The notes beneath the pieces were generated by a model that did not search any database, had not been told where the DNA came from, and was given only the letters and a program-made list of their open reading frames with translations. Positions 16,029-55,155 of a stretch of DNA of 64,000 nt are shown in pieces. The stretch comes from an uncultured Gammaproteobacteria bacterium. Its GTDB lineage: Bacteria > Patescibacteriota > Patescibacteriia > UBA1558 > 2-01-FULL-52-15. Where the stretch lies: positions 160,079 to 224,078 of the forward strand of contig CAYOCJ010000001.1 in the NCBI GenBank assembly GCA_964402565.1, written 5' to 3'. Position 1 is the first letter of the stretch; the number at the start of each line of letters is the position of its first letter. The position numbers and the translations under genes were made by a program.

Positions 16029-16045
16029 ACTTGTCGCGAGGCGAT

Positions 16046-16064
16046 AATCCCGCCCTCTCCGCCA
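16046..16064 (+). repeat. 19-nt direct repeat of the tRNA-Ser(GCT) 3' end (AATCCCGCCCTCTCCGCCA), att-like
   Basis: Exact match to 15355-15373. Confidence 0.6.
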
Positions 16065-16096
16065 TTAGTAAATTCATAGGAATTTTTTTTAAAATC

Positions 16097-16714: not shown

Positions 16715-16743
16715 GCCGAGACCGTTCGTGAAAGGAAGAGTAT

Positions 16744-18306: not shown

Positions 18307-18307
18307 T

Positions 18308-20801: not shown

Positions 20802-20802
20802 C

Positions 20803-28440: not shown

Positions 28441-30813
28441 ATGTTTGATAAAAAATCAAAAGATCAGAACGACTTGGATCTTGGCGAGATCAATCTTCTT
28501 CCTGAAGATCTGAGGGGCTCAGCTGAGAAGTATAAGAAAGCAAAGAATACCAAAGAGGCTCTTTATCAGCTTCGCGCTCCAAAAAAAGTAAAAAAGCGCC
28601 GCCGCGTCCTTGCATGGCTGCCGTTTTTCGGCGGAGAGCATTGGGAGGTTACGCCTGACGCCGCTGGTAAACCGCGGCCCGCAGGACCGAAGATCCCTGA
28701 TGCCGTCGCTGTTGAAACAAATGCTCCGAAAGCTCCCGAAGATGTCGGCCGATCCGCAACACCGAATGAGTTCGGGATCATTGCTCCTGTGTTCGGTACT
28801 AAGACAGGCAATGGGCCTCTGTCGCCGAAGACAAAGCGATCATTCAAGCAGGGCCTATCGCTGGCATCATTTTTTGGAAAAAAACGGCCAGGCGCTCCTG
28901 CCCACTCTGGTGCCGTGCCGGTGGCACAGAATGTACAGGAACAGCGTCCGGTGCACACCTTTACGACGCCGCCCCGGCACTACAGTTTGTTGTCAGACAC
29001 TGCATTGACGGAAAAAGAGCAATCGAGCGTTTCAGCGCCGCATGGGAAGCCGATGGACGGTAGTGAGAGCGTGAGTCACGGTATGCGTCCGGCGATGATC
29101 CAAACCATGCGCCCGGCGCCTGCCGAGCAAAGTGCGAAGGCTTCCCGCAAATGGCATTTGCCGAAATGGCTGGACATCTTTTCACTGCTGGCACTATTTT
29201 CCGGACCAGGAAAAGCTCGATCGCAATCTCAGAAGCGACCTATCGAGCCCGGTTCTCAATTGGCTGCGGCGCGCGAACCAATGCCTTCTCAGGGCCCGCG
29301 GCCTATCGAGCCAATTCATTTACATGCTTCACCCGCGAAGCCAGAGATGGATCGTATGCCATCGCGCGCTCCGATAACGCCCGTTGCGGTGCCAAAAACG
29401 ATCGAAGCGGTGAATACGTTCACCGGCGTCATGCAAAGAACTCCATCACCGATGTCGAAAGCGCCGAAGGTTCCCGGGAAATGGCATTTGCCGAAATGGC
29501 TGGATATATTCTATTGGCTCGACCTATTCACGCGTACTGACAAACAGCATCCTATGCCGCCGAAAAGATCTTCCATTGTTCCGCCGGCGCCGCCGAAACC
29601 ATTGGGCTTCACGCCGCCTGCACCTGCTCCTCAACCTTTGCAACCGGTCATTACTCCTATCCAGCCGGCGATCAAGCCTGTTGAGATGAAAAAAGAACAG
29701 ATGCCGGTAACGCCGATTACGCCTATCGCTTTTCCGAAACCCATCGAACCTATGAAAGCGCCTTTGCCCAGTATTCAGAAAACGCCGATGCCTCAGCCAA
29801 AGGCACCGAAACTTCATACAGAATGGCATATGCCGAAATGGCTGACCATGGCTTTTTGGCTCCATTTATTCCGACGGCAGCATACGTCTTTGCCAATGCC
29901 TAACAAGCATGCAGCGCCAGCACCTCCGGCTCCGAAACCGATGCTGACGCCAATGCCTGCAAAAACGCCTGTGACGCCTCCTCCTATGCCTATGCCCAAA
30001 GCACCTGCTCCGGCCATGCAAAGCGTACCAGGCATGCCTTCTCTTGCATCGGCAGCCGGCTCTGTGCACCCCGCGCAGCCGGTCACACCGGCAGCAGCGC
30101 CACGTCCGGTTTCAAATGATATTGTAGCTATCAAAGATGACGGGGATCATTCAAAAGAAAAAAAGCAAAAAGGACATCGCGGCATGCTATTCCATATGCC
30201 GACGAAAAATGCTTTTGCCAATGCATCGAAAGAGCTGCGGGAGATCAATCTTATTCCGGGCACGTATTTTGCACCGAAAGGCTGGAAGCAAATTAGCCTC
30301 AGCATCGGCATCGCGGTTTTTGTATCAGCAGGCCTGATAGGGCTTGCATTTGGCGGCCTGCATCTCTGGAGGATACAGCTCGATAAGCAAACAGCGGCGA
30401 TCGACACGCAGATAGAGTCGGTCAAGAACCGCATCTTGCTCTATAATGACCAAGAACCTGAAATGAGCGCTTTGGGAAATCGTGTGGAACTGGTGGCGCA
30501 ATTGCTGAATAAGCATGTGTACCTCACGAATTTCTTCAAACTACTTGAAAAGTATACATTGCCGGACGTGTATTACGATGGCGCTTCTGTTTCAGCTTCG
30601 GCAACTTCGATCACATTGAGCGCGCATGGCTCTAGTTTTGAAACCATTTCTCGCGAACTGCAATTAATGGGTTTGCCTGAAGCACAGGAATTCGTGACGA
30701 AGGCAACTATATCCAATGCGCAGTTGACGAAAAATGAAGATGGCGTTGATCAGGTCAACTTTAATATTGAATTGAATTTGAATCCAAATTTGTTCTACTA
30801 CCATGCTGGGTAA
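28441..30813 (+). CDS. PilN-like protein with a roughly 580-aa Pro-rich N-terminal insertion
   Basis: INLLP PilM-binding motif at aa 17-21 and again (INLIP) just before the single TM. The C-terminal coiled-coil resembles PilN. Three cytoplasmic repeats of about 110 aa, each with a WH(L/M)PKWL motif. Confidence 0.55.
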   Translation: MFDKKSKDQNDLDLGEINLLPEDLRGSAEKYKKAKNTKEALYQLRAPKKVKKRRRVLAWLPFFGGEHWEVTPDAAGKPRPAGPKIPDAVAVETNAPKAPEDVGRSATPNEFGIIAPVFGTKTGNGPLSPKTKRSFKQGLSLASFFGKKRPGAPAHSGAVPVAQNVQEQRPVHTFTTPPRHYSLLSDTALTEKEQSSVSAPHGKPMDGSESVSHGMRPAMIQTMRPAPAEQSAKASRKWHLPKWLDIFSLLALFSGPGKARSQSQKRPIEPGSQLAAAREPMPSQGPRPIEPIHLHASPAKPEMDRMPSRAPITPVAVPKTIEAVNTFTGVMQRTPSPMSKAPKVPGKWHLPKWLDIFYWLDLFTRTDKQHPMPPKRSSIVPPAPPKPLGFTPPAPAPQPLQPVITPIQPAIKPVEMKKEQMPVTPITPIAFPKPIEPMKAPLPSIQKTPMPQPKAPKLHTEWHMPKWLTMAFWLHLFRRQHTSLPMPNKHAAPAPPAPKPMLTPMPAKTPVTPPPMPMPKAPAPAMQSVPGMPSLASAAGSVHPAQPVTPAAAPRPVSNDIVAIKDDGDHSKEKKQKGHRGMLFHMPTKNAFANASKELREINLIPGTYFAPKGWKQISLSIGIAVFVSAGLIGLAFGGLHLWRIQLDKQTAAIDTQIESVKNRILLYNDQEPEMSALGNRVELVAQLLNKHVYLTNFFKLLEKYTLPDVYYDGASVSASATSITLSAHGSSFETISRELQLMGLPEAQEFVTKATISNAQLTKNEDGVDQVNFNIELNLNPNLFYYHAG

Positions 30814-31498
30814 ATCTAAAAAGAAAAAAGAAGCATCAGGACAGGCTCAAAAGAAAGAGCAGTCTTCCCTCGCGCTTCAGATTGTGAATCGTTATTTGCG
30901 GTGGGTTTTGTTCTTGGTCGTCTGCATCATGCTCTTCATCGGTTATACCTTCATCCTCCAGCAGCAGATCAGCGAAGCTCAAAGTGCCGCTAAGGAAAGT
31001 TTGCCGCTCAAACAAGAGGTGCTTGATGATCTGAAAACGATCGAGACTAAGCTTGACCAGGCATCCTCGGATTATGACCGTATTTTGAGAGAGAAGAAGC
31101 CGGCACTCGATCGTATTGCATTGTTGCTTCCTCGACATTCAGAATACGGGGAGCTCTTCCCATTGCTCAATAAAATAACACAGGCGAGCGGTTTCACATT
31201 GCAATCGATGAATCTGACATTGCCAGCCGATGCTGATGCGCCACCGGCATCTACGTCAGACACTTCGGTTTCTGATCCGATCACATCAGGTTTAGTGCAT
31301 GCCATCAATATACGCTTGAGCGTCCAAGGTGGTGACTATGAGGGCATTAAGAATTACTTGAAAAATCTTGAGCGAAATGTGCGCCTGTTCGATATTTCGT
31401 CAGTGACGGTAAGCGGGTCCGTTTTCATTCAGCAAAATAACGGAGTTACCACAACGCCGGCCTATGATCTGGAGCTCAAAACATACTATCAGCCTTAG
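30803..31498 (+). CDS. PilO-like pilus assembly protein
   Basis: Lys-rich N-terminus, single TM, coiled-coil, periplasmic domain. Sits between the PilN-like gene and pilB. Confidence 0.5.
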   Translation: MLGKSKKKKEASGQAQKKEQSSLALQIVNRYLRWVLFLVVCIMLFIGYTFILQQQISEAQSAAKESLPLKQEVLDDLKTIETKLDQASSDYDRILREKKPALDRIALLLPRHSEYGELFPLLNKITQASGFTLQSMNLTLPADADAPPASTSDTSVSDPITSGLVHAINIRLSVQGGDYEGIKNYLKNLERNVRLFDISSVTVSGSVFIQQNNGVTTTPAYDLELKTYYQP

Positions 31499-31501
31499 CA
31501 T

Positions 31502-31879
31502 ATGAAAAAGGATAAAATTTTGATCATTGTTTTTCTGCTGCTGCTTGCGTCATCCGGCTTAGTATTGTTCCGCGGATTCAGATCAGAAACTTTCAGCTCG
31601 GTGGAAACGCCGACAAGCTCGAATGATGATGTGGCTAAAACACAGGCTGAGGCAGTAAAGTCGAAGATCACGAACGCCATAAACAAGATCGATACAGGCG
31701 GATCCCTCGATACGCTTATTCAGAGTCAGCAATTCAAAGATCTGTTTCTGGTCGAAGGTCAGGGTGAGACCGATCTGCCGGTGCAGGTAGTTACGACCAC
31801 GACGATCGGTGATTATGGACGGCCGAATCCGTTCCTGGTGCCGACACTCCTGGCAACAACGACAAAACCAAAGAAATAA
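31502..31879 (+). CDS. Hypothetical secreted protein in pilus operon (PilP-like?)
   Basis: Signal/TM then a Thr-rich tail. Operon position only. Confidence 0.3.
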   Translation: MKKDKILIIVFLLLLASSGLVLFRGFRSETFSSVETPTSSNDDVAKTQAEAVKSKITNAINKIDTGGSLDTLIQSQQFKDLFLVEGQGETDLPVQVVTTTTIGDYGRPNPFLVPTLLATTTKPKK

Positions 31880-36372: not shown

Positions 36373-36459
36373 ATCATAACTACAATCATCATGCTGAAAG
36401 ATACTTTTTCTGATTATCTGGAAAATAAATCCTGGCAGTATCATGCACTGAACCACAGT

Positions 36460-36918
36460 ATGAACGTACTGTCTAAGAGCAGAGGATTTACGCTCATCGA
36501 ATTGCTCGTCGTGATCGCAATCATTGGCCTTCTCGCGTCTATCGCCATGGTTAACCTGAACAGTGCCCGAGGTAAGGCAAAGATCGCCTCAGCGAAGTCA
36601 ACCATGCATTCCATTCAGTCAGCCGCGGTGCTTTGTCAGGATGGATACAGCAGTAATATTGCCTGGAACACTATTGGAAACCTGTGCGCAAGCACTGGCG
36701 TTAACACCGTAGCAGGTAATAAGCCTGCGAATGGTACCACGGTCTGTAACTCGAACGGTGCAGCTGGTTCGATCAACTGGCCAGACCTGCCAACCGGCTG
36801 GAACTACCAAAACGGCTGTAACCAAGTTTCTGCAAATAGCAGCTTTACGTATAGCGCTACAGATCAAACCTGTATTATCACCTGTACACAAATAGCCTGC
36901 ACATACGCAGGTTGTTAG
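36460..36918 (+). CDS. pilA: Type IV major pilin (prepilin with class III signal peptide), copy 1
   Basis: Leader then G/FTLIELLVVIAIIG with Glu+5. The C-terminus has paired Cys. The alternative upstream start at 36391 has no SD. Confidence 0.75.
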   Translation: MNVLSKSRGFTLIELLVVIAIIGLLASIAMVNLNSARGKAKIASAKSTMHSIQSAAVLCQDGYSSNIAWNTIGNLCASTGVNTVAGNKPANGTTVCNSNGAAGSINWPDLPTGWNYQNGCNQVSANSSFTYSATDQTCIITCTQIACTYAGC

Positions 36919-36957
36919 GCTGTTGGCAACGTATAGATAGAATTTATCGAGAAAATG

Positions 36958-36966
36958 TGGTATAAT
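36958..36966 (+). promoter_or_regulatory. Extended -10 promoter element TGgTATAAT upstream of pilin gene 2
   Basis: Consensus extended -10. A GGAGGTGA Shine-Dalgarno lies 8 nt before the ATG at 37069. Inverted repeat TTAAGAGGAA..TTTTCTCTTAA lies between them. Confidence 0.35.
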
Positions 36967-37068
36967 GTTTAGTACTGGTCGATATGTGGATAGTTTATAA
37001 TTTAAATATCTGTTAAGAGGAAGACACGAGCTCGTTTTCTCTTAACCACAATGAATGGAGGTGACAGA

Positions 37069-37518
37069 ATGAACAAAAACAAAGGATTTACGCTCATCGA
37101 ATTGCTCGTCGTGATCGCTATTATCGGTATTTTGGCTGCGATCGCCATGGTTAACCTGAACAGTGCCCGAGGTAAGGCAAAGATCGCCTCAGCGAAGTCA
37201 ACCATGCATTCCATTCAGTCAGCCGCGGTGCTTTGTCAGGATGGATACAGCAGTAATATTGCCTGGAACACTATTGGAAACCTGTGCGCAAGCACTGGCG
37301 TTAACACCGTAGCAGGTAATAAGCCTGCGAATGGTACCACGGTCTGTAACTCGAACGGTGCAGCTGGTTCGATCAACTGGCCAGACCTGCCAACCGGCTG
37401 GAACTACCAAAACGGCTGTAACCAAGTTTCTGCAAATAGCAGCTTTACGTATAGCGCTACAGATCAAACCTGTATTATCACCTGTACGGAGACTGCTTGT
37501 ACGTATACCTCTTGTTGA
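37069..37518 (+). CDS. pilA: Type IV major pilin, copy 2 (near-identical to copy 1)
   Basis: MNKNKG/FTLIELLVV prepilin motif. About 420 nt (37081-37495) identical to 36481-36895. Diverges only in the last roughly 8 codons. Confidence 0.8.
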   Translation: MNKNKGFTLIELLVVIAIIGILAAIAMVNLNSARGKAKIASAKSTMHSIQSAAVLCQDGYSSNIAWNTIGNLCASTGVNTVAGNKPANGTTVCNSNGAAGSINWPDLPTGWNYQNGCNQVSANSSFTYSATDQTCIITCTETACTYTSC

Positions 37519-37539
37519 CCTGATAGTAAGTGGTTATCA

Positions 37540-37570
37540 AAAACAGTCCTTTGCTTGGGACTGTTTTTGT
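37540..37570. terminator. Bidirectional rho-independent terminator between convergent pilin and TPR-membrane operons
   Basis: AAAAACAGTCCTTTGCTTGGGACTGTTTTT. Confidence 0.65.
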
Positions 37571-37583
37571 ATTTAGTAAATAA

Positions 37584-39779
37584 TTATTTGGATTTTTCTA
37601 GATACTGTGCAGCAAGATCTGGTTGGCCGTTATCTGCATAGGCGCGGCTGAGATCCAGGTAATCTTGCGGAGTAATTTTTTCCGGATCGATAAGCGCCAG
37701 ATAATGGTGCATGAGTTCTATTGATTTCTGATTATGATCGAGTTGATAACTTGTTCTGGCATATGTCTGATAGTATTCATTCGGTGCCTGGCCAGGCAAG
37801 AATGGTACCTTACTGAATACGGCATCCGCTTTTTTGTATAGGCCGAGGTTATAGAGAGCGATACCGAGGCCGGTCATGCTTTGTTTATTTTTTTCGATTG
37901 CTATGGATTGTTTGAACGTGTCTGCTGCTGCACTGTTCTCATCCCGGTCGATCTGTATCATGCCCAGCATGTCCAGATAGGTATTGTTGCCGTTCTGTAA
38001 CAGCATGACCTCATGCATGAGTTGCTCTGCTATCTTGAGATCATCTTGTGTATGCCCATCACATTCGTGAAGTAATTTTGCGGCAACGGTCATCGCATAA
38101 AGCGGGTGTTCGAGTTCGTGCATATTTCGACTGATCTCCGCAAAAAGATTGGCCTTTGCTTTTGGTTCTTTACAAAATGGGAGGTATCTATCCAATGCTT
38201 TTCCTGGGTTGAGGATCGCATAGGTATGATTTTTGATGATATCGTCATTTGTCTTGGACGCGGTCATATACACAGATTCATAGTTATCGAAGAAAACAAG
38301 CGACCACTCCTTCGATTCGCTTAACATATTTGCAAATGAAGAGGTGGCGGGGAAGACAATAAAGGAAATGTCGTATTTTTTTACAGCCTTTTGGAATGTC
38401 TTGCTGTCCGCAATGGCGCGATAGTACCAAAAGAAATAACTGTCATACAGGTTCGCCGCGCGACCGTCGATAAACACTTTGTACTGCGGATAGAGTTGCC
38501 AGATCAAAGAACTGCCGTCAGCATACTCATTCAGCATATTGCCTTGTAGATTGGCTTTTTTGAGAAAGGCGATGCTTTCTCTTGCCTCAATGATGCTCGA
38601 GGGTCCGATATTGAGAGATGATATCGATCCGGCAAAAAAAATGATAAAAAATAATGCCGCAAAAAATGCGACTTGAGCAAGAATTTCCTTTTTTTTGAGC
38701 TGTGTAACAATGGTAACATTTTTTGCAGTAATCAATGCAGCGATCAATACGAATATGTACATGCCGCGATTGTATTTGAATGCAGATAGCAAAAAGATGA
38801 TAAATAATAAAGTATCCTCGAAAAAAAATGTTTCAATGATACTGAGCAATTTGTATTTTTTTGATCTGCAGAGAAGGACGAGTTTATACGCGAGCACAAC
38901 CGCTGCGATCCATGCAAGAACAGGCACGGGAGTTGACGCATTCGAAGGAAAACTGACGAGATTCGCAAGTGGTGTCGAAAACCATTCTGTAATATTATTC
39001 AGAGTGTCAGTATCATTAAGCATTTTGCTCACGAAGCCGTATACATCATAGCCATAGGGAGTTACCAAGGTGACGGCACATACCAAAACAAGAATTATGC
39101 CATAGGTCCTTGCAAGTGTGTTTCGCGAAAATGTGCGAATAATATTTTTGTGTCTGATGAATGATCGCAATACTTCGCTGCCAAAGAATATCCCAACAAG
39201 CAATATGCCAAGCTCAAAACTACCATGCGCATTTGACCAAATTATCTCAACAAGCGGTAACGCGTAGATGAACTTTAAATGTCGATATTTGTATGCATAG
39301 AGTGCAAAAAGAAAGTAGCCCGCGAATAATGGAGAGGCGATCTCGGGTCTGATAAAGTTTCTGAGCAATGGAAGTGTGAAAAGAAACAGAGCTAGTGTGA
39401 GCACTAGATGTTCGTTCTTTTTTATCAACGCTGTTTTTATGAAAAAATAATATCCAGCGGAGATCAGTACAAAGCGTAAGGCATTGAGCCCGATATGTGC
39501 ACTATAGAGATAGATCAGGTATACCATGCCATCAAAAAGCCATGTATTGTTCAGCCAATAACCGCCCGCGAATGTATATGAAAATACATCGTGCGTCATG
39601 ATCGCATGGTTTTGAAACATCCATTTACCAAGAGAAAGGTGCCACCAAAAATCGTTATACGAAACTTGACCGAAACTGATGAGAGCGAGAACACAAACGA
39701 AAATCGCAATGCATAACACATTCACTTTGTTCCGGGAGGAAGTGAAATCAATCATTTTTTTAAGGGAAGTAGGTATCAT
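37584..39779 (-). CDS. Polytopic membrane protein with C-terminal TPR domain (putative GT-C-type glycosyltransferase)
   Basis: About 12-14 TM in the N-terminal 500 aa. The first loop carries YNDFWWHLSLGKW. C-terminal roughly 200 aa are TPR-like. Confidence 0.45.
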   Translation of the reverse strand: MIPTSLKKMIDFTSSRNKVNVLCIAIFVCVLALISFGQVSYNDFWWHLSLGKWMFQNHAIMTHDVFSYTFAGGYWLNNTWLFDGMVYLIYLYSAHIGLNALRFVLISAGYYFFIKTALIKKNEHLVLTLALFLFTLPLLRNFIRPEIASPLFAGYFLFALYAYKYRHLKFIYALPLVEIIWSNAHGSFELGILLVGIFFGSEVLRSFIRHKNIIRTFSRNTLARTYGIILVLVCAVTLVTPYGYDVYGFVSKMLNDTDTLNNITEWFSTPLANLVSFPSNASTPVPVLAWIAAVVLAYKLVLLCRSKKYKLLSIIETFFFEDTLLFIIFLLSAFKYNRGMYIFVLIAALITAKNVTIVTQLKKKEILAQVAFFAALFFIIFFAGSISSLNIGPSSIIEARESIAFLKKANLQGNMLNEYADGSSLIWQLYPQYKVFIDGRAANLYDSYFFWYYRAIADSKTFQKAVKKYDISFIVFPATSSFANMLSESKEWSLVFFDNYESVYMTASKTNDDIIKNHTYAILNPGKALDRYLPFCKEPKAKANLFAEISRNMHELEHPLYAMTVAAKLLHECDGHTQDDLKIAEQLMHEVMLLQNGNNTYLDMLGMIQIDRDENSAAADTFKQSIAIEKNKQSMTGLGIALYNLGLYKKADAVFSKVPFLPGQAPNEYYQTYARTSYQLDHNQKSIELMHHYLALIDPEKITPQDYLDLSRAYADNGQPDLAAQYLEKSK

Positions 39780-41992
39780 AATGCTGGTGTGGTTGTTGGA
39801 TGTGTGAGTGTCTTTGATTTTTCAATATAGTTGTCAGCAGAAGCAGTATCGCCGGCGTCACGATATGCATTTGCAATATCGATATAATCTTGTTGGGTAA
39901 TCTCATTTTCATCAGCAACGTCAAGATATTTTTTAAAAAATTCAATAGCACGATCATTGTAATCGAGCTGATAACTTACGCGTCCATATACCTGATAAAA
40001 TTCATTTGGAATTGGTGCGGGTAAAGCCGGAATTTGTTTGAGTACTTTTTCGGCCTCTGCATACCTGCCTAGGTTATGTAGTGCGATGCCTAAGCCGGTC
40101 ATATTTTGAGCATTTTTTTTGATCTGGATCGATTTTTTAAATTCATCTACAGCTTCTTGTTCTCTGCCGAGATCGATAAGGTCGGTGCCCAGGTTAGCAT
40201 GTGCGTCCATGTCGTCCGGCTGATACGATATGATGGAGCGCAGTATGGTTTCTGCCTGTCGACTATTCTCAACAGTTTTGCCTTCGCAGTTCATAAGCAA
40301 GTAGGCAAGCACCGAAAGACTGTACACTGGTTCTTTAATTTCCGAGAGGTTTCTTTGAATTTCCTTTTTGAGTGTTTGCTGATCGGCGTTGTTCTGACAA
40401 TATTTTTTATAACCGCGTACCTCCGTAGCAGGATTAAGTATAGTGTACTGATTCGTATCTATGATTGCATCATTGCCAACGCCTTGCTTCATCACCACTG
40501 CGCTGGAGCCATCAAAAAAAACTAGCTTCCAATCTTTGCGAGTGATAATAGCGCTGTACAGTCTTGAATTATTTGGAACAATTGCGAAGCCTATCAAGAA
40601 CTGGTTTATGGCAGCTCCGAGGACATTGGTGTCGCCCATATTGCGATAGTACCAATAGTAATCATTGTCGTAGACATTTGGCGTCCTGCCGTCAATGAAT
40701 ATCTTATATGCGGGGAACAGTTGCCAGGACAATTCGCTGCCATTGCCATAATCATTCAGGAGGTTACCTTTTGGCTTTTCGTTTAGTACAAATGCGATGC
40801 TTTCGTGCGCCATGCTCGCATACGCTGGTCCGGTATTGAGTGTAAAGTCGTGTGCCCCACTCGTATAAATGATGATAAACATTAAACCGAGCGCCGCTTG
40901 GAGATAGAGCAATGTTGATCCGTTCGTTTGAACCCGAGCAAATCTCACGATGATGAGTGCGGAGATAAGTATCAGCGTGATCAGATAGCGATTATACTCA
41001 TGCGCCATATAGAAGTAAAAAGAAAAGATAGTTACTTCCTCATAGGGAACATTTCTTAAAAATGCAAACGTAGTAATTTTGTTCGTCCACAGGACCTTCA
41101 TTTTTTTGAGTAAGACGCCAACGGCTATGAAAAGGTACAGAGGATGGGCCACCGATGCGTTGAGTGGGAATGTAAACATTGATGAAAAAGGAATTTTCGA
41201 CCATTCCTGGATATTTCGAAGGCTTTCCTGATCACTTAAAATTTGATGCGTCAGAATGTAAATATAGTATCCATACGGATTGGCTAATGACGCTAGGCAG
41301 GTGAGAACGAGAACGATGCCATAGGCTCTGACGTATTTGTTGAACTTAAAACTCTGTATGATGAAACAGCGATGACGTAACATCGTACGCCATAGTTCTG
41401 CGCCGAAAAAAAAGGCAATCAAAACGATACCCATGGTAAACGTGCCATGAGTATTTACCCAGATGACCTCAAGGATTGGTAATAGGTAGAGATATTTTTT
41501 GTGTTCGTATTTAAAACTATACAGACTGAACAGGAATATACCGATGAATAAATTTTGCATGATTTCGGGTCTGACTAGGTTTCGCGTTTGCGGTATGCAC
41601 AGTAAAAAAACAATCACAGCAAACAAGAGACCCTTTGTGCCCTGTTTGATAAGGCTCGCACGTATGAAGAAGAAATAGGTTGCTCCAAATACCAGAAATC
41701 TCAGAATAGTAAGCCCCGCGAAGGAGGTTTTGCTGAACAGAAGGTAGAGTAAACCGTCGAACAGCCACGTTCCATTTAGCCAAAGCTTTCCGGAAAAATG
41801 TTGAGAAAAAATATCATGGGTGAGAAATGATTTCGACGCCAGCATCCATTTTCCTAATGCAAGATGCCACCAAAAGTCATTGTAGGAGAACTGGCCGAAA
41901 CTTAGCAATGCGATTAGTATCACAAAAACTGCGACCGCTACGGCAGTCGCAGTTCGAGATGAGCCTAAGACATCAGTCAATCTTTTTTGCAT
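39776..41992 (-). CDS. Paralogous polytopic membrane + TPR protein (putative GT-C-type glycosyltransferase)
   Basis: Same architecture and conserved blocks (FGQFSYNDFWWHLALGKWM; NEYADGS/NDYGNGS; FIDGR) as 37584-39779. Overlaps it by 4 nt. Confidence 0.45.
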   Translation of the reverse strand: MQKRLTDVLGSSRTATAVAVAVFVILIALLSFGQFSYNDFWWHLALGKWMLASKSFLTHDIFSQHFSGKLWLNGTWLFDGLLYLLFSKTSFAGLTILRFLVFGATYFFFIRASLIKQGTKGLLFAVIVFLLCIPQTRNLVRPEIMQNLFIGIFLFSLYSFKYEHKKYLYLLPILEVIWVNTHGTFTMGIVLIAFFFGAELWRTMLRHRCFIIQSFKFNKYVRAYGIVLVLTCLASLANPYGYYIYILTHQILSDQESLRNIQEWSKIPFSSMFTFPLNASVAHPLYLFIAVGVLLKKMKVLWTNKITTFAFLRNVPYEEVTIFSFYFYMAHEYNRYLITLILISALIIVRFARVQTNGSTLLYLQAALGLMFIIIYTSGAHDFTLNTGPAYASMAHESIAFVLNEKPKGNLLNDYGNGSELSWQLFPAYKIFIDGRTPNVYDNDYYWYYRNMGDTNVLGAAINQFLIGFAIVPNNSRLYSAIITRKDWKLVFFDGSSAVVMKQGVGNDAIIDTNQYTILNPATEVRGYKKYCQNNADQQTLKKEIQRNLSEIKEPVYSLSVLAYLLMNCEGKTVENSRQAETILRSIISYQPDDMDAHANLGTDLIDLGREQEAVDEFKKSIQIKKNAQNMTGLGIALHNLGRYAEAEKVLKQIPALPAPIPNEFYQVYGRVSYQLDYNDRAIEFFKKYLDVADENEITQQDYIDIANAYRDAGDTASADNYIEKSKTLTHPTTTPAL

Positions 41993-42558
41993 AGGAGCTC
42001 GAACTCTATCTCCTCAAAGCCGCCGACCCAGAAGCACCAGATCCTGCTGCAAAAATTTTGACCCATATTTGCAAGTCCCGTGATAACGAAATTAACTCCG
42101 CGCAAAACAGTCACCGTGATCGGCGAGACGCCCATGTGTTTCATAAGGTGAAAGAAGGTCATCCAATGCAGTTCGGTTTTCTTGTGGACGAACTCCACTC
42201 CATAGAAACCTGATTTCGTGAAATTCTTATTGAAGTAATACGGGAAGATGACATCAAAACCTGACTTGTGTTCTGAATGGGTCATGCCGCGGCTGAAATG
42301 GGGGACTTTGATATGCAATGTGCCGCCCGGCTTCAATATACGATGCAATTCCTGCATGACAGAAAAAGGTCGGTCCAGGTGCTCGAGTATGTGAAAGGCC
42401 TCGATAAGTTCAAATGAATTATCCGGGAAAGGATAGGGGAGGTCATTCAGGTTATGTACGACATCTGGTTTTACATGATCGTGAAAATCGAGGTTGACAT
42501 AACCTTCTTTCTTATCCTCACCGCAACCGAGGTTCAATTTAGGGTGTTTTGGCTCCAT
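41977..42558 (-). CDS. Class I SAM-dependent methyltransferase
   Basis: LNLGCGEDKKEGYVNLD...ILEHLDRPFSVMQELHRILKPGGTLHIKVP. Confidence 0.7.
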   Translation of the reverse strand: MEPKHPKLNLGCGEDKKEGYVNLDFHDHVKPDVVHNLNDLPYPFPDNSFELIEAFHILEHLDRPFSVMQELHRILKPGGTLHIKVPHFSRGMTHSEHKSGFDVIFPYYFNKNFTKSGFYGVEFVHKKTELHWMTFFHLMKHMGVSPITVTVLRGVNFVITGLANMGQNFCSRIWCFWVGGFEEIEFELLCKKD

Positions 42559-42566
42559 AATAGGCT

Positions 42567-44429
42567 TTACTTATACCACCTATCATACCACATCTGGAAG
42601 ACCATTAATGTCCACAGCTCTTTTCGATTATCTTGTTTCCCAGCGAGGTGATCCGATTGCAGTTTAGAGATCGTGGCATAGTTGAACAGTCCCTGTTTTT
42701 TTATTCGTTCCTGGGAGAGCAGTGAGTCAGTAAGGGGTTTCAATTCATGTTTGAGCCAGCGCGTGAGCGGTATGCCAAAGCCTTTTTTTGGCCTTGTCAC
42801 CACTGCAGCGGGCAGTTTATCCTTCATGAGCTCTTTCAATATATATTTCATGGTGAAACCGTGAATTTTGTAGTCGCTGGGCAACGATAAAGCGAATTGG
42901 GCCAGCTCATGATCGAGGAATGGCGCCCGGACTTCCAGAGCATTATACATGCTTGCGCGGTCGACCTTGGTCAAAATGTCTCCCTCCATGTATGTCCGGA
43001 CGAATGTATATGATAATTGATTCAATGGTTCAATGCTGGGGTCGTCCTTGAGGAGGTCGTCTATGATCTGATATTCATTGCGCTGCAGAGCGTCTTTGTT
43101 CAGGAGCAGTTCGTGCTGTGCATCGAGGCTAAAGCTCGATAGCCATCGCTGGTTTCTATAGGGAACTGAAACCTTCATGCCATCCAGCATGCGTCGGATA
43201 CGGAAACCCAGCGACATATTTTTTTCACCCTCAGGGAAGAGATGTGCAAGAGGTTCGCCGAGCGTACGCAGAAAAGTCGGGATCTTTTGATAGAGAAGCG
43301 AAAGTTTCAATGCCTGGAACGTATCATAGCCGGCGAGCAACTCATCTCCGCCATCACCCCCGAGCGCGACGGTCACGTGTGACCGCGTATAGCGCGATAA
43401 GAGATAGGTCGGCAGCAATGATGCATCCGCCAGCGGCTCGTCGAGAAGATCGGCAATAGTCGGAATGATATCCAAAGATTCATTTGCAGCGAAGATATGC
43501 TCGTGATGCTCGGTTCCGAGATGCTGCGCGACTAAACGTGCATAATTTGATTCATCGAAGGACGATTCTTTGAATCCGATAGAGAATGTCTGTATCTTTT
43601 GCTGCGAGGCTTGTTGTGCATAGTAAGCGACCGTTGAACTATCGATACCCCCGCTCAAAAAAATTCCCAATGGCACATCGGAGATCAGGCGGAGCTTGGT
43701 GCTGCGGGCAAGGTGTCCGTCGAGCTCCTGGACTGCTTCCGGAAATGTTACCGTGGACTGTTTTTTTTCAAATGCCCAATAGCTCTGATGAGACAGCTGC
43801 GTACCGTCCCAGACCGCATACTCTGAAGGTTTCAATTTTGAGATGCCTTTATAGATGGAATGCGGTGTCGGTACATATTCATACTGGAGGTAGAGGCTCA
43901 TCGAATGCAGATCGAGTTCCCTGCGGGCACTCGGGTGTTTGAACAATGCTTTCGGTTCGGATGCAAACATCAAGGTCGAATCGAAGATCCCATAGTACAG
44001 GGGTTTTTTACCGAACCGATCGCGTGCGAGCACGACGATGTCTTTTTTCTGGTCGTAGATCGCGAGCGCGAACATTCCATTCAGCTTGCTGAACATGTTG
44101 ACGCCGTAGTTTTTATAGAGGGCGAGCAGCACCTCAGTGTCGCTATTGGTCCTGAAAGCATATCGGTTGCCTGCGACCAGATCTTTTTTCAGCTCGCGAT
44201 AATTGTATATTTCTCCGTTGAAGGTGATGTGGATGCTGTCATCATCGCTGGACATAGGCTGATGCCCGCCAGGGGAGAGGTCAATGATAGCGAGGCGTGC
44301 CTGCGCCAGTGCAGTTTTGCCACGAAAAAAAACCCCGGTATCATCAGGTCCGCGGTGATGCAGCGCGGCGATCATTTCCGTGACCGTTGCCTTGTCTCCT
44401 TTGCCTGAAAATCCAGCAATTCCGCACAT
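42567..44429 (-). CDS. asnB: Asparagine synthetase B (glutamine-hydrolysing) family amidotransferase
   Basis: N-terminal MCGIAG Ntn nucleophile, PP-loop SGGIDSS, about 620 aa. Confidence 0.85.
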   Translation of the reverse strand: MCGIAGFSGKGDKATVTEMIAALHHRGPDDTGVFFRGKTALAQARLAIIDLSPGGHQPMSSDDDSIHITFNGEIYNYRELKKDLVAGNRYAFRTNSDTEVLLALYKNYGVNMFSKLNGMFALAIYDQKKDIVVLARDRFGKKPLYYGIFDSTLMFASEPKALFKHPSARRELDLHSMSLYLQYEYVPTPHSIYKGISKLKPSEYAVWDGTQLSHQSYWAFEKKQSTVTFPEAVQELDGHLARSTKLRLISDVPLGIFLSGGIDSSTVAYYAQQASQQKIQTFSIGFKESSFDESNYARLVAQHLGTEHHEHIFAANESLDIIPTIADLLDEPLADASLLPTYLLSRYTRSHVTVALGGDGGDELLAGYDTFQALKLSLLYQKIPTFLRTLGEPLAHLFPEGEKNMSLGFRIRRMLDGMKVSVPYRNQRWLSSFSLDAQHELLLNKDALQRNEYQIIDDLLKDDPSIEPLNQLSYTFVRTYMEGDILTKVDRASMYNALEVRAPFLDHELAQFALSLPSDYKIHGFTMKYILKELMKDKLPAAVVTRPKKGFGIPLTRWLKHELKPLTDSLLSQERIKKQGLFNYATISKLQSDHLAGKQDNRKELWTLMVFQMWYDRWYK

Positions 44430-44505
44430 AGGTTACCAAAACAATACTTGACAACTCATTAATATGAAATGATACTAACATAGCACCTACTCGATAGCAA
44501 CCACC

Positions 44506-44922
44506 ATGCTTACCAACATACAACGGATACGCGTTTACTCGTTATCCATCATTGTGGCTATTATTATTTTGGCGATCTTTTTTGGAATCTCAGACCGTCA
44601 GCGGCTCGCGGATATTCGTACGCTGGGGGAGGCGAGGACCTTTTCCTATGCACTAGAGCGATATCGCCAGGAGTATTGGCGGTACCCGCTGGGCAACCAT
44701 ATTGATATACGCACCGGGGTTAACCTGTCTGAGAACGGATTCGTGCCCGGCGTTCATTTATATTACCAAGGAGGCATACCGAGCTCGCATGCGGTAACGT
44801 ATGACGGCACTGATGCGTCCTATTCGATCAACTTTACGCTTCACAAAACGTGGCCGGAATTAGGCATCACCAGCACGAAGTGCACAGTCACCGAGAATTA
44901 CAGCCTGAAGTGCGTTAAATGA
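44506..44922 (+). CDS. Hypothetical protein with N-terminal hydrophobic helix (pilin-like fold?)
   Basis: N-terminal TM and amphipathic helix. Lacks the G/FxxxE prepilin motif. Lies upstream of pilD. Confidence 0.3.
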   Translation: MLTNIQRIRVYSLSIIVAIIILAIFFGISDRQRLADIRTLGEARTFSYALERYRQEYWRYPLGNHIDIRTGVNLSENGFVPGVHLYYQGGIPSSHAVTYDGTDASYSINFTLHKTWPELGITSTKCTVTENYSLKCVK

Positions 44923-44958: not shown

Positions 44959-45735
44959 ATGGAATATAGTGTCGTTTTTGTTTTTGGGCTGATAGTTGGC
45001 AGTTTTTTAAATGCGATCATTTATCGCCTTTCAGTAGGCCAGTCAGTGACCGCGGGGCGGTCATATTGTCCTGAGTGCAAGCATGTGCTGGCGCCGCGGG
45101 ACCTTGTGCCGGTACTGAGCTTCATGGTTTTGCGAGCCAAATGCCGGTATTGCCGTACGCCGATATCATGGCAATATCCGATCGTCGAGCTCGCAACCGC
45201 ATTCGCATTTGTGCTGGCGTATATGCAGATCGCGCCGAATGGCCTAATGCTCGGGGACAATGGTCTTCGCCTCATGCTGTATTGGATTTATGCAGCTTTT
45301 TTGATCGTGATCTTTGTCTATGACCTGAAACATTATTTGATTCTCGATGCGGTGATTATTCCTGCAGCTATCATTGCATTGATCGGCGGCATAGCCTTGC
45401 ATCAGCCGGTCTTGAGCATGTTGCTCGCGGGTATTGTCGCGGCAGGGTTTTTTGGCGTTCAGTTCTTTGTTTCGCGAGGCCGCTGGATCGGAGGCGGGGA
45501 TATACGTTTAGGTTTTCTCATGGGGCTTATCCTGTCCTGGCCGCATGTCGTCATCGCATTAATGCTGGCCTATGTGCTTGGCAGTTGCATCGGTATCGCT
45601 TTGATCCTTGCCGGCAAGAAAAAATTTGGAAGCCAGCTCCCTTTCGGCACTTTTCTTACTATAGCGACCTATATCGTGCTTTTGTACGGCGATCAGATCT
45701 TTAATTGGTATTGGAGTTTTACCTATGGCGCGTAG
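44959..45735 (+). CDS. pilD: Prepilin peptidase PilD (A24 family)
   Basis: N-terminal CPEC...CRYC zinc finger, GGGDIRLGFLMG block, 6-8 TM. Confidence 0.8.
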   Translation: MEYSVVFVFGLIVGSFLNAIIYRLSVGQSVTAGRSYCPECKHVLAPRDLVPVLSFMVLRAKCRYCRTPISWQYPIVELATAFAFVLAYMQIAPNGLMLGDNGLRLMLYWIYAAFLIVIFVYDLKHYLILDAVIIPAAIIALIGGIALHQPVLSMLLAGIVAAGFFGVQFFVSRGRWIGGGDIRLGFLMGLILSWPHVVIALMLAYVLGSCIGIALILAGKKKFGSQLPFGTFLTIATYIVLLYGDQIFNWYWSFTYGA

Positions 45736-53605: not shown

Positions 53606-54358
53606 ATGGCACGGTCAATTGAAGAAAGGATTCAAAATACCATTCGGGCAAAAAAACGCCGTCGATGGTACACCCGATGGTGGGGCACAACCTTGATCGT
53701 TCTAGGGGTGCTCGTGGTGATCTGGTCCGTGGCTGTAGTCGTTCAGACCATTCATTATTATCGCGAGTATACCAAAGCCGGCGGCAGTAATTCGATCGCT
53801 GAGTTTGCTCAGACGCGCCAGGATACGAAAATCGACCTGCTTCATAATAGCGACGATCCAAGCGTAGGACCTAAAACAGCGCCGGTAACTATTGTCGCAT
53901 TCGAAGATTTTCAATGCCCGTATTGCTTTCAGGCACAGCCATTCCTGAAGAAATTGCTTGCGGCGCACCCCGGAGATGTACGGCTGATCTATAAGGATTT
54001 CCCTTTAAGCTCCATACACCCTGATGCTCAGGCAGCCGCTGAAGCTGCACAATGTGCGTTCCAGCAGGGTAAGTTCTGGGAGTATCATGATGAGCTTTTT
54101 GCCAATCAAAGCCGTTTTGCAGAGGCATTTTATAGGGCTACAGCAAAGAAGGTCGGGTTGAATATCAATACCTTCAACGAATGCCTGGCAACGGCAAAAA
54201 CGAAACAAAGTATCTCCCAGGATGTAGAACTAGGCAGGACCCTCGGCGTACTGGGGACTCCGACCTTTTTCATCAATGGCGAGTTATTCGCTCAAGGCTA
54301 TAGCCCGGAGATCGATTCTCAGTTCGAAAAGGCTATTGAGTACATCCGGTCTTTGTGA
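53606..54358 (+). CDS. DsbA-family thiol:disulfide oxidoreductase, membrane-anchored
   Basis: N-terminal TM. CxxC FQCPYC. Conserved LIYKDFPLSSIHPDAQ and GKFWEYHDELF. Confidence 0.7.
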   Translation: MARSIEERIQNTIRAKKRRRWYTRWWGTTLIVLGVLVVIWSVAVVVQTIHYYREYTKAGGSNSIAEFAQTRQDTKIDLLHNSDDPSVGPKTAPVTIVAFEDFQCPYCFQAQPFLKKLLAAHPGDVRLIYKDFPLSSIHPDAQAAAEAAQCAFQQGKFWEYHDELFANQSRFAEAFYRATAKKVGLNINTFNECLATAKTKQSISQDVELGRTLGVLGTPTFFINGELFAQGYSPEIDSQFEKAIEYIRSL

Positions 54359-54414: not shown

Positions 54415-55155
54415 ATGGATACTGAAAACATGACTCAACAGGGCAAAAAGAGCTTCATGATGGGGCTGATAACCGGTCTCGGCATTTGTATTGTCGTGGG
54501 CGGAGCATTTATGATGGGACGCTATGGCACACCAGGCGGATTAGGCGGCGGATCGAACCCTCCGGCAGCTCAACAGCCGACGGCACAGCAGCCGACACAG
54601 CCATCCGGACCTGAAGGCGATGCAACAAAGATTGCAGCAGTATCGAAGGACGACCATATTCGCGGTGATGCAAATGCACCGATCACCATGATCGAATACA
54701 GCGATTTTGAATGCCCATTCTGCTTGCGATTCCACGAAACTTTGACCCAGGTATTCGCTGATTATAAGGGCAAGGTCCGACTCGTATACCGACAATTCCC
54801 ATTACGATCTATCCACCCACAGGCTCAGAAAGCTGCTGAGGCATCTGAATGCGCTTCTGCTCAGGGTAAATTCTGGGAAATGCATGACAAGCTTTTCGAG
54901 CTTAACAAGGCTCAGAATCTGAACGTAGACTCTATGAAGACAGGCGCGAAGGACATTGGCCTCAATACGACCCAATTCAACACTTGTCTTGATAAAGGCC
55001 AAATGGTTGATACAGTTGAAAAGGATTATCAGGACGGCTTGGCTGGAGGCATCGCAGGCACGCCTGGCACCTTCGTCAATGGACAGTACCTGGCAGGAGC
55101 ATTGCCATACTCTGACGTAAAGACAATTCTCGACGGTATCCTCAACAAGAGCTAA
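54415..55155 (+). CDS. DsbA-family thiol:disulfide oxidoreductase, paralog 2
   Basis: TM. FECPFC. LVYRQFPLRSIHPQAQ and GKFWEMHDKLF. Confidence 0.7.
   Translation: MDTENMTQQGKKSFMMGLITGLGICIVVGGAFMMGRYGTPGGLGGGSNPPAAQQPTAQQPTQPSGPEGDATKIAAVSKDDHIRGDANAPITMIEYSDFECPFCLRFHETLTQVFADYKGKVRLVYRQFPLRSIHPQAQKAAEASECASAQGKFWEMHDKLFELNKAQNLNVDSMKTGAKDIGLNTTQFNTCLDKGQMVDTVEKDYQDGLAGGIAGTPGTFVNGQYLAGALPYSDVKTILDGILNKS

Follow-up and report, generated by a model that had tools for sequence, protein, structure and literature searches.

Candidate GT-C-type pilin glycosyltransferases encoded within a type IV pilus locus of a probable Patescibacteria bacterium

CPR/Patescibacteria have conserved type IV pili, by which they attach to host bacteria. 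Glycosylation of the pilins in this group is to date a prediction, and the enzymes have been described as unexplored (PMC11623550). The DNA analyzed here, a stretch of 64 kb that we call the window, comes from a probable CPR/Patescibacteria bacterium, probably one that lacks a secretin. In it, two near-identical pilin genes are separated from the pilD/minor-pilin block by four closely spaced genes on the minus strand (Table 1). The question raised by this locus is whether the four genes serve to modify the pilus beside which they lie. We think it likely that the two tandem proteins of about 735 aa are extracytoplasmic, lipid-donor-dependent GT-C protein glycosyltransferases that serve the type IV pilus specifically, with donor tailoring by the AsnB and methyltransferase (MTase) products and with exchange of the transferase genes as part of a cassette. 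The locus provides the first concrete candidates for pilin-glycosylation enzymes in CPR/Patescibacteria, namely two GT-C-TPR proteins with a putative catalytic Asp.

The four ORFs match exactly the genes listed in a preliminary description of this DNA, and the flanks agree with that description: pilB, a response regulator gene, pilT, pilC and the two pilin genes on one, and a 138-aa ORF, pilD, three minor pilin genes, a 586-aa ORF and ligA on the other. Within the set, an 8-nt gap is followed by overlaps of 16 nt and 4 nt, from which an operon organization is reasonably inferred. The operon promoter would lie in the divergent asnB/orf138 region; the TTGACA-17-GATACT match found there (44448-44476) is on the plus strand and would thus serve orf138, a gene that occupies the same place in related loci, with pilD on one side and asnB/GT-C genes on the other. 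At the opposite end, a terminator shared with the pilins had been proposed to act in both directions. A hairpin does occupy this gap, and its bidirectional action is presumptive, the scan having flagged the plus strand only. The ORF of pilin copy 1 opens at 36391, but translation probably starts at the Met codon at 36460, which gives the leader MNVLSKSRG/FTLIE and a mature protein of 143 aa with eight Cys residues, a Ser plus Thr content of 20%, and the sequons N82-G-T and N117-S-S.

Table 1. Positions of the features discussed in the text (numbering of the window)
Feature	Position	Strand	Basis or remark
GT2 glycosyltransferase, 238 aa	20803..21519	+	Glycos_transf_2; ends sugar-nucleotide/GT operon 15426-21519
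Type IV pilin copy 1	36391..36918	+	N_methyl/TIGR02532 matches
Hypervariable cassette (pilin variable parts and both GT-C-TPR genes)	36593..41972		blastn, per-gene identity, GC
Type IV pilin copy 2	37051..37518	+	N_methyl/TIGR02532 matches
Hairpin, candidate shared terminator	37538..37569		13-bp stem; 65-nt gap between convergent pilin 2 and GT-C-TPR A
GT-C-TPR paralog A, 731 aa	37584..39779	-	Predicted GT-C-fold glycosyltransferase, C-terminal TPR
GT-C-TPR paralog B, 738 aa	39776..41992	-	Predicted GT-C-fold glycosyltransferase, C-terminal TPR
Small class I SAM-dependent MTase, 193 aa	41977..42558	-	Methyltransf_11, 42 bits (cut-off 21)
AsnB-family glutamine-dependent amidotransferase, 620 aa	42567..44429	-	Asn_synthase, 342 bits; GATase_7, 147 bits
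Divergent intergenic region, 76 nt, asnB/orf138	44430..44505		Presumed operon promoter region, inferred
orf138, small protein, N-terminal TM helix	44506..44922	+	Family match: none
PilD prepilin peptidase, far boundary of module	44959..45735	+	A24_N_bact and Peptidase_A24 matches

The two membrane proteins are indeed TPR-bearing paralogs, as had been noted, and are 41% identical across 728 aa. In paralog A, about 11 TM helices (residues 15-387) are followed by an extracytoplasmic alpha/beta domain (approximately 400-518) and a TPR domain (approximately 529-730). The positive-inside rule holds, with Lys and Arg accounting for 19-21% of the inner loops versus 3-6.5% of the outer loops. In the predicted structure, the membrane domain superposes on solved GT-C enzymes and lies within their range of 8-13 TM helices, which, together with an acidic residue in the first extracytoplasmic loop, supports the GT-C fold suggested in the preliminary description. 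The acidic residue (D43 in A and D39 in B) is invariant or nearly so and is located 8 residues past TM1 on the outer side. It is accompanied by conserved H47, R144-P145, W181/N183/H185, P241, E265, R338 and D438-G-R440 in A, and by H43, R141-P142, W178/N180/H182, P239, E263, R335 and D434-G-R436 in B, where, according to the predicted topology, all of them are on the outer face. Each of the 18 residues conserved in the superfamily maps to an outer loop, an outer helix end or the outer C-terminal domain, and all 18 are kept in both paralogs. Distant members carry the motif DxDxxxH in the first outer loop, and the TPR-fused clade carries YNDFWWH, which includes D39 of paralog B; the first Asp of DxD is thus replaced by Asn, and this weighs against the reading that we favor.

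According to that reading, the 11-helix membrane domain, with an Asp in its first outer loop, would accept a sugar from a polyprenyl-phosphate carrier on the outside of the cytoplasmic membrane, where the C-terminal TPR domain would bind the protein to be modified. This protein would most likely be the major pilin encoded by the neighboring gene, modified in the membrane ahead of assembly. AsnB and MTase, presumably co-transcribed upstream, would probably act on the donor sugar while it is still in the cytoplasm, AsnB amidating a carboxylate at the expense of ATP and glutamine and MTase adding a methyl group.

The superfamily of the catalytic domain comprises more than 24,000 clusters (at 50% identity), is covered by no Pfam or NCBIfam model and has no named member or source annotation; a GT-C superfamily of this size represents a gap in glycosyltransferase classification. 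The expected kinship with PF13231 or PF02366 was not borne out, as neither model matched the two paralogs or 10 superfamily representatives at E<=0.01, and hhalign against the bona fide PMT_2 protein of a related locus (L004; related loci are numbered with the prefix L) gave a probability of 2%. STT3/AglB/PglB, PMT and DPY19 differ from the paralogs in that sequence identity is 8-12% and none of those family HMMs match, and in the soluble part, which is alpha/beta plus TPR here and the periplasmic domain of PglB/STT3 or the MIR domain of PMT there. No Pfam match to Wzy_C (PF04932) and no structural match to an O-antigen-ligase fold was found in the paralogs. TfpO glycosylates pilin, as is proposed for the paralogs, from a gene that likewise adjoins pilA, and contributes to surface variation and to the evasion of phages, but TfpO/PilO and PglL are of another family (Wzy_C/O-antigen-ligase type).

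TfpW, the pilin D-arabinofuranosyltransferase of P. aeruginosa group IV strains (Pa5196/PA7), combines GT-C and TPR domains and is encoded beside pilA (bioRxiv 10.1101/2020.04.19.049825). It has 11 predicted TM helices, and an acidic motif of its first periplasmic loop is needed for activity (bioRxiv 10.1101/2020.04.19.049825; PMC11841053). The proteins described here are like TfpW in combining a polytopic GT-C-type domain with a C-terminal TPR domain on the periplasmic side, in the proximity of the gene to pilin (pilin 2 is convergent and lies 65 nt away), and in being part of a pilin allele cassette. The likeness to TfpW that had been proposed does not extend to its published sequence motifs, which are missing from both paralogs: the first outer loop of neither contains the DD of the PL1 motif DDX, having N-D instead, and the PL4 motif Y-x6-PF-x7-P is absent from residues 1-540 of both in regular-expression searches that included relaxed forms. 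The paralogs, compared with TfpW through motifs and architecture, are therefore to be regarded as TfpW analogues and not as shown members of its family. In addition, the best template for TfpW is ArnT, which for the paralogs ranks below STT3, PMT and DPY19; the TfpW gene follows pilin on the same strand, whereas the genes here converge on it; two tandem paralogs with AsnB and MTase stand in place of the D-Araf genes; and the organism is a probable CPR bacterium rather than one of the Pseudomonadota. DprE1/DprE2 and polyprenyl-phosphoribose synthase, which are unlinked in P. aeruginosa, were not found among the Pfam-scanned ORFs of the 64 kb. TMTC1-4 and TMEM260 are eukaryotic protein O-mannosyltransferases, the TMTCs being GT-C proteins with TPR (PMC7801869; PMC10214176); there too a GT-C domain is fused to a lumenal/extracytoplasmic TPR domain and specific protein domains are glycosylated from a polyprenyl-phosphate sugar. 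They differ in being eukaryotic ER enzymes with other acceptors, and the paralogs gave no Pfam match to those families.

Where the donor might come from is suggested by the three-component systems in the model of Mann and Whitfield, in which a GT2 links a sugar to lipid phosphate, the product is flipped, and a GT-C carries out the transfer on the extracytoplasmic side (PMC11127046). Classical systems of this type (GtrA, a GtrB-type GT2 and a GT-C) modify O-antigen, not proteins. The operon differs from them in having no polyprenyl-phosphate-sugar synthase (GT2) and no flippase, a point against our hypothesis, and no GtrA-like gene was detected among the window ORFs scanned. The only GT2 of the window has TIGR04283 as its best NCBIfam match, under cut-off, and Dol-P-Man synthase 5mlz as its sole PDB sequence match (E 3e-7); to judge by these matches, it is a weak candidate for the missing synthase. 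A GT2 partner adjoins family members elsewhere. Those in L005, L006 and L014 score highest with AglJ, Dol-P-hexose transferase, PpgS, ArnC and PgfS, all of them models of polyprenyl-phosphate-sugar synthases, and in L075 a DPM1-like GT2 fused to an MTase lies directly upstream of the family member.

The link to pilin was assessed by comparison of loci. The TPR-fused clade (approximately 720-745 aa) adjoins pilin/T4P genes in every locus with enough flank, namely the window, L001, L003, L004/L013, L011, L012, L014 and L015, as does the 23%-identical member of a secretin-bearing organism (L006), so that the synteny anticipated in the preliminary description holds in all informative loci, with GT-C genes that co-diversify with the pilins. 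These loci include cases of about 30% and about 23% identity with different gene orders and comprise at least three gene arrangements, of which only about three are independent, most of the loci representing one lineage with conserved synteny. In approximately 70 loci of TPR-less relatives the prepilin motif is absent. Both of the distant TPR-bearing relatives checked (L091 and L092) are not pilin-linked, and TPR fusion alone therefore does not imply a pilin acceptor.

Comparison with the sister locus L001 delimited a hypervariable cassette. DNA similarity (blastn) ends within the segment for the pilin N-terminal helix (36592) and restarts at the MTase stop codon (41973); the GC content is 40-43% in between and 47-49% in the flanks. 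Identity is 99% for PilM, 90% for PilB, 86% for PilC, 81% for MTase, 78% for PilD, 77% for LigA and 74% for AsnB, compared with 48-49% for the pilins and 41-44% for the GT-C proteins. The variable region of pilin and the GT-C genes are thus probably inherited and exchanged as one cassette that diversifies the pilus surface, like the pilA-tfpO/tfpW alleles of P. aeruginosa, in which pilin and enzyme are exchanged together. The occurrence of such co-variation in a distant lineage suggests that glycan-based diversification of the pilus surface is a general strategy.

One could envision that the proteins are active but that their acceptor is something other than the major pilin, such as a minor pilin, the 586-aa or a 790-aa protein of the pilus locus, another surface protein, or a cell-envelope glycopolymer, and that they reside here because the locus is a general hot-spot of surface variation. 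Divergence from L001 is as high in the minor pilins and other genes of the pilus locus as in the major pilin, and hence another pilus component could be the acceptor. We consider this unlikely, as the GT-C genes are contiguous with the variable region of the major pilin and separate from the minor-pilin block, and as the GT-C gene directly abuts the major pilin gene, at 68-664 nt, in L014, L015, L003 and L006. Moreover, the TPR-fused GT-Cs of known function, TfpW and the TMTCs (PMC7801869), act on proteins. It is far less probable that the proteins are non-catalytic factors of pilus assembly or stability that have kept only the GT-C scaffold, comparable with TPR pilotins (PilF/PilW) or TfpY-like accessory proteins. 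The PilF likeness of the TPR domain is generic, and a loss of activity fits poorly with the retention of all the outward-facing residues across so large a superfamily or with the fact that EL1, the putative catalytic loop, is the best-conserved segment among alleles (61% versus approximately 40% overall). Catalysis by the GT-C-TPR proteins is a prediction.

The place of AsnB and MTase is less certain. AsnB has an intact catalytic Cys2 (MCGIAG) and PP-loop (SGGIDSS), and MTase has motif I (LNLGCG) at residues 8-13. Orthologs of both (those of MTase at E 1e-84 to 1e-93) are paired in three other CPR genomes (L093-L095), next to genes for GT2, a GtrA flippase, GT4s and sugar dehydrogenases/epimerases, with GtrA/GT2 beside the pair in L093 and L095. 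In CPR glycan clusters, AsnB and MTase thus form a conserved and recurrent pair, a candidate for donor tailoring, which agrees with the glycan-decorating role first proposed. AsnB is probably a glycan-tailoring amidotransferase. Its score with the EPS-associated model TIGR03108 (540 bits) is under the cut-off of 817, and with TIGR01536, a general model for asparagine synthase, it reaches 501 bits, over the cut-off of 267. The pair might instead serve a general CPR envelope pathway, for example a cell-wall glycopolymer or peptidoglycan amidation, and neighbor the GT-C genes by chance, so that the latter alone constitute the pilin module. This possibility, which we rate below a coupled system without dismissing it, draws on the position of the pair outside the cassette and its core-gene-like divergence, on the pilin-adjacent GT-C-TPR gene of L003, which has no nearby asnB and has the MTase gene elsewhere in the locus, on the lack of AsnB in L014 and L006, on the unrelated membrane proteins that accompany the pair in L093-L095, and on the TIGR01536 match of AsnB. 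Because AsnB and MTase diverge like housekeeping genes and have other partners elsewhere, their link to these GT-Cs rests on adjacency only. The gap and overlap nonetheless indicate co-transcription, L001 shows the same succession asnB-MTase-GT-C and L004 and L011 show asnB-GT-C, and in other CPR genomes the pair is surrounded by GT2 and GtrA, the components that supply the donor in GT-C systems. Donor-making genes would also be expected to be conserved and acceptor-specific transferases to vary.

A more tentative and decidedly less probable proposal than our main hypothesis joins these elements: a previously unrecognized, very large GT-C family, of which the TPR-fused clade would be the CPR/Patescibacteria pilin glycosyltransferase, with pilin and enzyme forming a swappable hypervariable cassette that sets the surface identity of the pilus with which these episymbionts find hosts, and so affects host range or phage evasion. 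The glycan would carry an AsnB-made amide and methyl decorations, and the two alleles might form a Pmt1-Pmt2-like heterodimer or transfer two different sugars. The pairing of two pilins with two GT-Cs, to which attention had been drawn, does not extend to L001, which has two pilins and one GT-C. In the window, the two pilin genes share approximately 350 nt of identical DNA, and between the mature pilins there are 6 residue differences, of which 4 fall within the final 9 aa; paralogs A and B are as different from each other as alleles from different genomes.

The ORF calls bear out the preliminary description of four minus-strand genes in a pilus locus (table below). In gene order, starting at asnB, the first two genes are 8 nt apart, the second and third overlap by 16 nt, and the third and fourth by 4 nt; because these distances are so small, co-transcription is the natural inference. 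In AsnB both the nucleophile Cys2 and the PP-loop SGGIDSS are present. Aligned end to end, the two membrane proteins, paralogs A and B, show 41% identity. The operon is set among type IV pilus genes: upstream, PilM is followed by three unknown ORFs, PilB, a response regulator, PilT, PilC and two pilins, and a conserved 138-aa ORF (orf138), PilD, three minor pilins, a 586-aa ORF (orf586) and LigA lie beyond the four genes. Pilin 2 and the convergent membrane gene are 65 nt apart, and a hairpin with a 13-bp stem fills this gap. Over about 350 nt the DNA of the two pilin genes is identical, and six residues distinguish the mature proteins.

Coordinates of the operon and of other features in the window and, where named, in related loci
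Feature	Coordinates	Strand	Remarks
AsnB-family amidotransferase	42567-44429	minus	620 aa; Asn_synthase 342 bits, GATase_7 147 bits
Class I SAM methyltransferase (MTase), minimal	41977-42558	minus	193 aa; Methyltransf_11 match, LNLGCG motif
GT-C-TPR paralog B	39776-41992	minus	738 aa
GT-C-TPR paralog A	37584-39779	minus	731 aa
orf138	44506-44922	plus	N-terminal TM helix, small domain with two C-terminal Cys
PF18895 (T4SS_pilin) genes, adjacent	159-905; 915-1976		
tRNA-Ser	15283-15373		alongside sugar operon
Sugar operon	15426-21519	plus	
GT2 of sugar operon	20803-21519	plus	last gene
210-aa ORF	22240-22872	minus	weak C-terminal phosphoribosyltransferase match
Three ORFs between pilM and pilB	28441-31879		790, 231 and 125 aa
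First DNA-similarity gap versus L001	36593-41972		
Second DNA-similarity gap versus L001	46054-49840		
DsbA-like thioredoxin genes, tandem	53606-54358; 54415-55155; 55186-55785		just downstream of gatC/gatA
lgt	55800-56603		after the DsbA-like genes
GT2-Methyltransf_11 fusion, locus L075	6636-7919		428 aa
GT2-Methyltransf_11 fusion, locus L043	75-683		truncated
PMT_2 GT-C, locus L004	5122-6528	minus	468 aa, no TPR

Searches of the membrane domain against Pfam, NCBIfam and PDB sequences returned TPR matches only. AlphaFold2 models built on family alignments, of very high confidence (pLDDT 93.2 and pTM 0.89 for B; 92.9 and 0.88 for A), predict for each paralog a membrane domain of 11 helices, then a small alpha/beta domain (about residues 396-514 in B) and a TPR superhelix (about 525-728). 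About 11 helices thus replace the 12-14 claimed previously, and the TPR domain, also claimed, is seen in both models, with a clear Pfam match in paralog B only. The structural matches of the models, with their paired values, were STT3B (18.8/19.5), Pmt4 (17.4/17.9), DPY19 (17.0/16.1), AglB (16.4/17.1), PglB (15.6/15.6), ALG12 (15.5/16.3), ArnT (15.0/14.3), AftA (14.5/14.5) and AftD (14.4/14.3); no transporter or O-antigen-ligase fold was among them. The models therefore agree with the GT-C fold that had been proposed for the membrane proteins.

A GT-C enzyme works outside the cytoplasm on a lipid-linked donor. With the model helices taken as TM segments, K and R make up 19-21% of the inner loops versus 3-6.5% of the outer loops, and this determines an N-in/C-out topology. 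Across an alignment of 54 sequences, the following residues (B numbering) are invariant or nearly so: D39, H43, W76, R141-P142, W178/N180/H182, P239, E263, R335, G418, D434-G-R436, W488 and D494; D39 sits in a first-loop motif that reads YNDFWWH in the window's clade and DxDxxxH in distant members. Given the N-in/C-out topology, each of the 18 conserved residues is at the outer face or within the C-terminal domain, which is outside too. In the models, both this placement and the topology are as would be expected of a GT-C enzyme.

Membership in the PMT_2-type families (PF13231/PF02366) found no support: there was no Pfam match, and profile-profile comparison with a genuine PMT_2 (ArnT-like) GT-C gave a probability of 2%. 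Pfam, structure comparison and hhalign together ruled out transporter, O-antigen ligase/polymerase and PMT_2 identities. A word-indexed search yielded no more than about 55 relatives; each was unnamed or a "hypothetical protein", and none had a precomputed Pfam domain covering the catalytic part. An exhaustive profile search recovered 72,882 cluster representatives at a cut-off of E<=1e-3, or 24,663 when the cut-off was E<=1e-30, and a Pfam scan of ten superfamily representatives gave nothing except TPR matches. From the profile counts, the Pfam results and the poor PMT_2 score, we infer that the window's proteins belong to a large GT-C superfamily undescribed by current family libraries. Most members lack TPR and have 480-550 aa; some carry TPR and have 640-920 aa. 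The TPR-less members of about 500 aa often occur as 2-5 tandem or convergent paralogs (L009/L010, L017, L018, L025, L036, L045 and other loci), with four to five in a row on a Binataceae contig, which hints at multi-enzyme or heteromeric use.

To survey gene neighborhoods, we scanned with alignment A2, A1 and A4 being too diverse; 185,579 species representatives gave just two loci, and metagenomes yielded 80 further loci. In a scripted survey, the close-relative clade (about 720-745 aa, at least 280 bits, 30-44% identical to the window's proteins) adjoins pilin or type IV pilus genes wherever the flank suffices, so the expected synteny with pilins holds for this clade. The arrangements vary. 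The sister locus L001 (CAYRBH010000013.1) has the gene order of the window with a single GT-C, and L003 has a GT-C alone between the pilD block and a pilin. In L014, pilC is followed by a GT-C on the opposite strand and then by pilin-GT2-MTase; in L015 a pilin is 198 nt away; L011 and L012 preserve only the pilD or orf138 side before the contig ends. L004/L013 carry asnB, GT-C, a PMT_2 GT-C and then pilin, and because the bona fide PMT_2 enzyme of L004 lies between the pilin and GT-C-TPR genes, two unrelated GT-C enzymes flank one pilin there. The more distant L006 encodes a 716-aa member, 23% identical and with a C-terminal helical extension, after two pilins and before a GT2, in an organism that has a secretin and a sigma-54 activator. 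The idea that two pilins are matched one-to-one to two GT-Cs fails, since two pilins go with a single GT-C in L001 and one pilin with one GT-C in L003. A TPR fusion is no constant mark of pilin linkage either: the distant TPR-bearing relatives P0039 and P0036 (loci L091 and L092) have no pilus genes nearby. In about 70 loci of TPR-less relatives, no prepilin motif was found. The pilin association is, therefore, a property of the clade and not of the TPR fusion.

Comparison with L001 separates conserved from variable genes. Protein identity is 99% for PilM, 93% for the response regulator, 90% for PilB, 86% for PilC, 82% for PilT, 81% for MTase, 78% for PilD, 77% for LigA, 76% for GatA and 74% for both AsnB and orf138; it is 48-49% for the major pilins, 41-44% for GT-C, 49-53% for the minor pilins and 45% for orf586. 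DNA similarity extends from pilB to position 36592, inside the conserved pilin N-terminal helix, and returns at 41973, the MTase stop codon; because it is absent in between, the pilin variable region and both GT-C genes form one contiguous hypervariable cassette (GC 40-43% versus 47-49% in the flanks). The second gap takes in most of the three minor pilins and orf586 (45-53% protein identity), with conserved pilD and ligA on either side. Most allele pairs in the clade, co-resident paralogs included, are about 35-45% identical in a star-like matrix, so the 41% identity of A and B, the same as for any two clade alleles, leads us to reject a recent tandem duplication. Nor is the TPR domain the fast-evolving part, as divergence is uniform at about 40% identity throughout; the first outer loop, putatively catalytic, is more conserved than the other domains (61%). 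In P. aeruginosa, pilin alleles are told apart by linked accessory genes, tfpO and tfpW included (PMC11841053). Co-diversification is the strongest evidence here that the enzymes may act on the pilus.

All 11 named AsnB relatives among the 120 matches listed come from Patescibacteria (CPR), and the relatives listed are 49-58% identical, the window's own protein and the 74% L001 ortholog set aside. These relatives, the two PF18895 genes, a family we take to be typical of CPR genomes, and the lack of a detected secretin gene in the window indicate that the window is probably from a CPR bacterium. L001 is labelled "uncultured Gammaproteobacteria", though its genes are 74-99% identical to those of the window; judged by sequence, this is probably an error of taxonomic assignment.

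In three other CPR genomes (L093-L095), AsnB orthologs lie inside large glycan clusters with GT4s, GT2s, epimerases, a UDP-sugar dehydrogenase, GtrA and many MTases. A GT2 of about 315 aa is immediately upstream of the AsnB ortholog (one gene further up in L094), and an ortholog of the window's MTase is just downstream (E 1e-84 to 1e-93), immediately so in L093 and L094. The 541-658-aa proteins without Pfam match beside AsnB-MTase in these other CPR genomes were rejected as members of the paralogs' family (no hmmsearch match; hhalign 0.7%), and the large membrane proteins at this place are not related among themselves either. The glycan-cluster context and the unrelated membrane partners suggest a conserved donor-tailoring pair joined to different transferases. 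AsnB-like enzymes occur in O-antigen and capsule pathways. By analogy, AsnB likely amidates a sugar carboxylate and MTase methylates; given the context of the three orthologs, a housekeeping asparagine synthetase seems less likely.

The synteny and co-diversification, with the predicted GT-C fold, support the original interpretation of the operon as a pilin-modification module. We consider it reasonably probable that the locus directs protein glycosylation of the pilus, in which the two GT-C-TPR enzymes would glycosylate a pilus protein outside the cytoplasm and AsnB and MTase would tailor the donor sugar. That AsnB and MTase are bystanders is doubtful to us, and it is rather improbable that the acceptor of the GT-C-TPR enzymes is something other than pilin; these are the chief rivals. 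The pilins carry N-x-S/T sequons at mature positions 82 and 117, of which the latter is mostly, not always, conserved among the clade's pilins, and they lack the bacterial D/E-x-N-x-S/T sequon; the sequons thus single out no acceptor site.

The main gap, and the weakest link of the model of pilus glycosylation, is the donor side. A GT-C enzyme needs a polyprenyl-phosphate sugar supplied by a GT2 and a flippase, a three-component logic (PMC11127046), and neither is in the window's four-gene operon. GT2 genes adjoin superfamily members in L006, L014 and L005 (best scores AglJ, Dol-P-hexose transferase, PpgS, ArnC and PgfS), and in L075 a fusion of a DPM1/ArnC-like GT2 with Methyltransf_11 is directly upstream of a member; the same fusion occurs in L043. 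The only GT2 in the 64-kb window ends the sugar operon, which also encodes an unknown 200-aa ORF, an MTase, a 520-aa NDP-sugar epimerase/dehydratase with a C-terminal extension of about 200 aa, a NUDIX protein, a GT4 and a CofE-like ligase. This GT2 is TIGR04283-like, not ArnC/AglJ-like, and would be a weak candidate for the donor synthase. The ligase, a CofE/folate-type gamma-glutamyl ligase homolog, is an odd member for a glycan operon.

By its described features, the closest known system is TfpW of P. aeruginosa, a 646-aa pilin glycosyltransferase in which 11 predicted TM helices precede a C-terminal TPR domain; its gene adjoins pilA, and its acidic first-loop motif is needed for pilin glycosylation (bioRxiv 10.1101/2020.04.19.049825). 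Architecture and genomic logic are alike; however, the window's paralogs lack the two motifs reported to be conserved among TfpW homologs, and the best structural relatives of our models are not those of TfpW. On this comparison of described features, we treat the paralogs as enzymes that would work like TfpW and do not class them as members. Eukaryotic TMTCs share the GT-C plus TPR design, for protein O-mannosylation (PMC7801869), and TfpO/PglL-type enzymes are functional analogues from a different family. Pilin glycosylation in CPR has only been predicted computationally, its machinery being called unexplored (PMC11623550). What is new here is a TfpW-like solution, with predicted enzymes, from an undescribed GT-C superfamily in another lineage, where the alleles stand in tandem and the hypervariable cassette has sharp borders.

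Several neighboring genes deserve mention. orf138 matched no family; it holds the same position, with pilD on one side and the asnB/GT-C genes on the other, in L001, L003, L004, L011 and L012 (43-74% identity) and may be a pilin-like or accessory protein. The three ORFs between pilM and pilB have no Pfam match, are only 49-58% identical to their L001 counterparts and probably serve this lineage as PilN/O-like proteins or as pilus components exposed at the surface. Because the pilins have 8 Cys each, the DsbA-like trio is a possible dedicated disulfide-forming set for pilus proteins. The 210-aa ORF is possibly a ComF-like competence protein.
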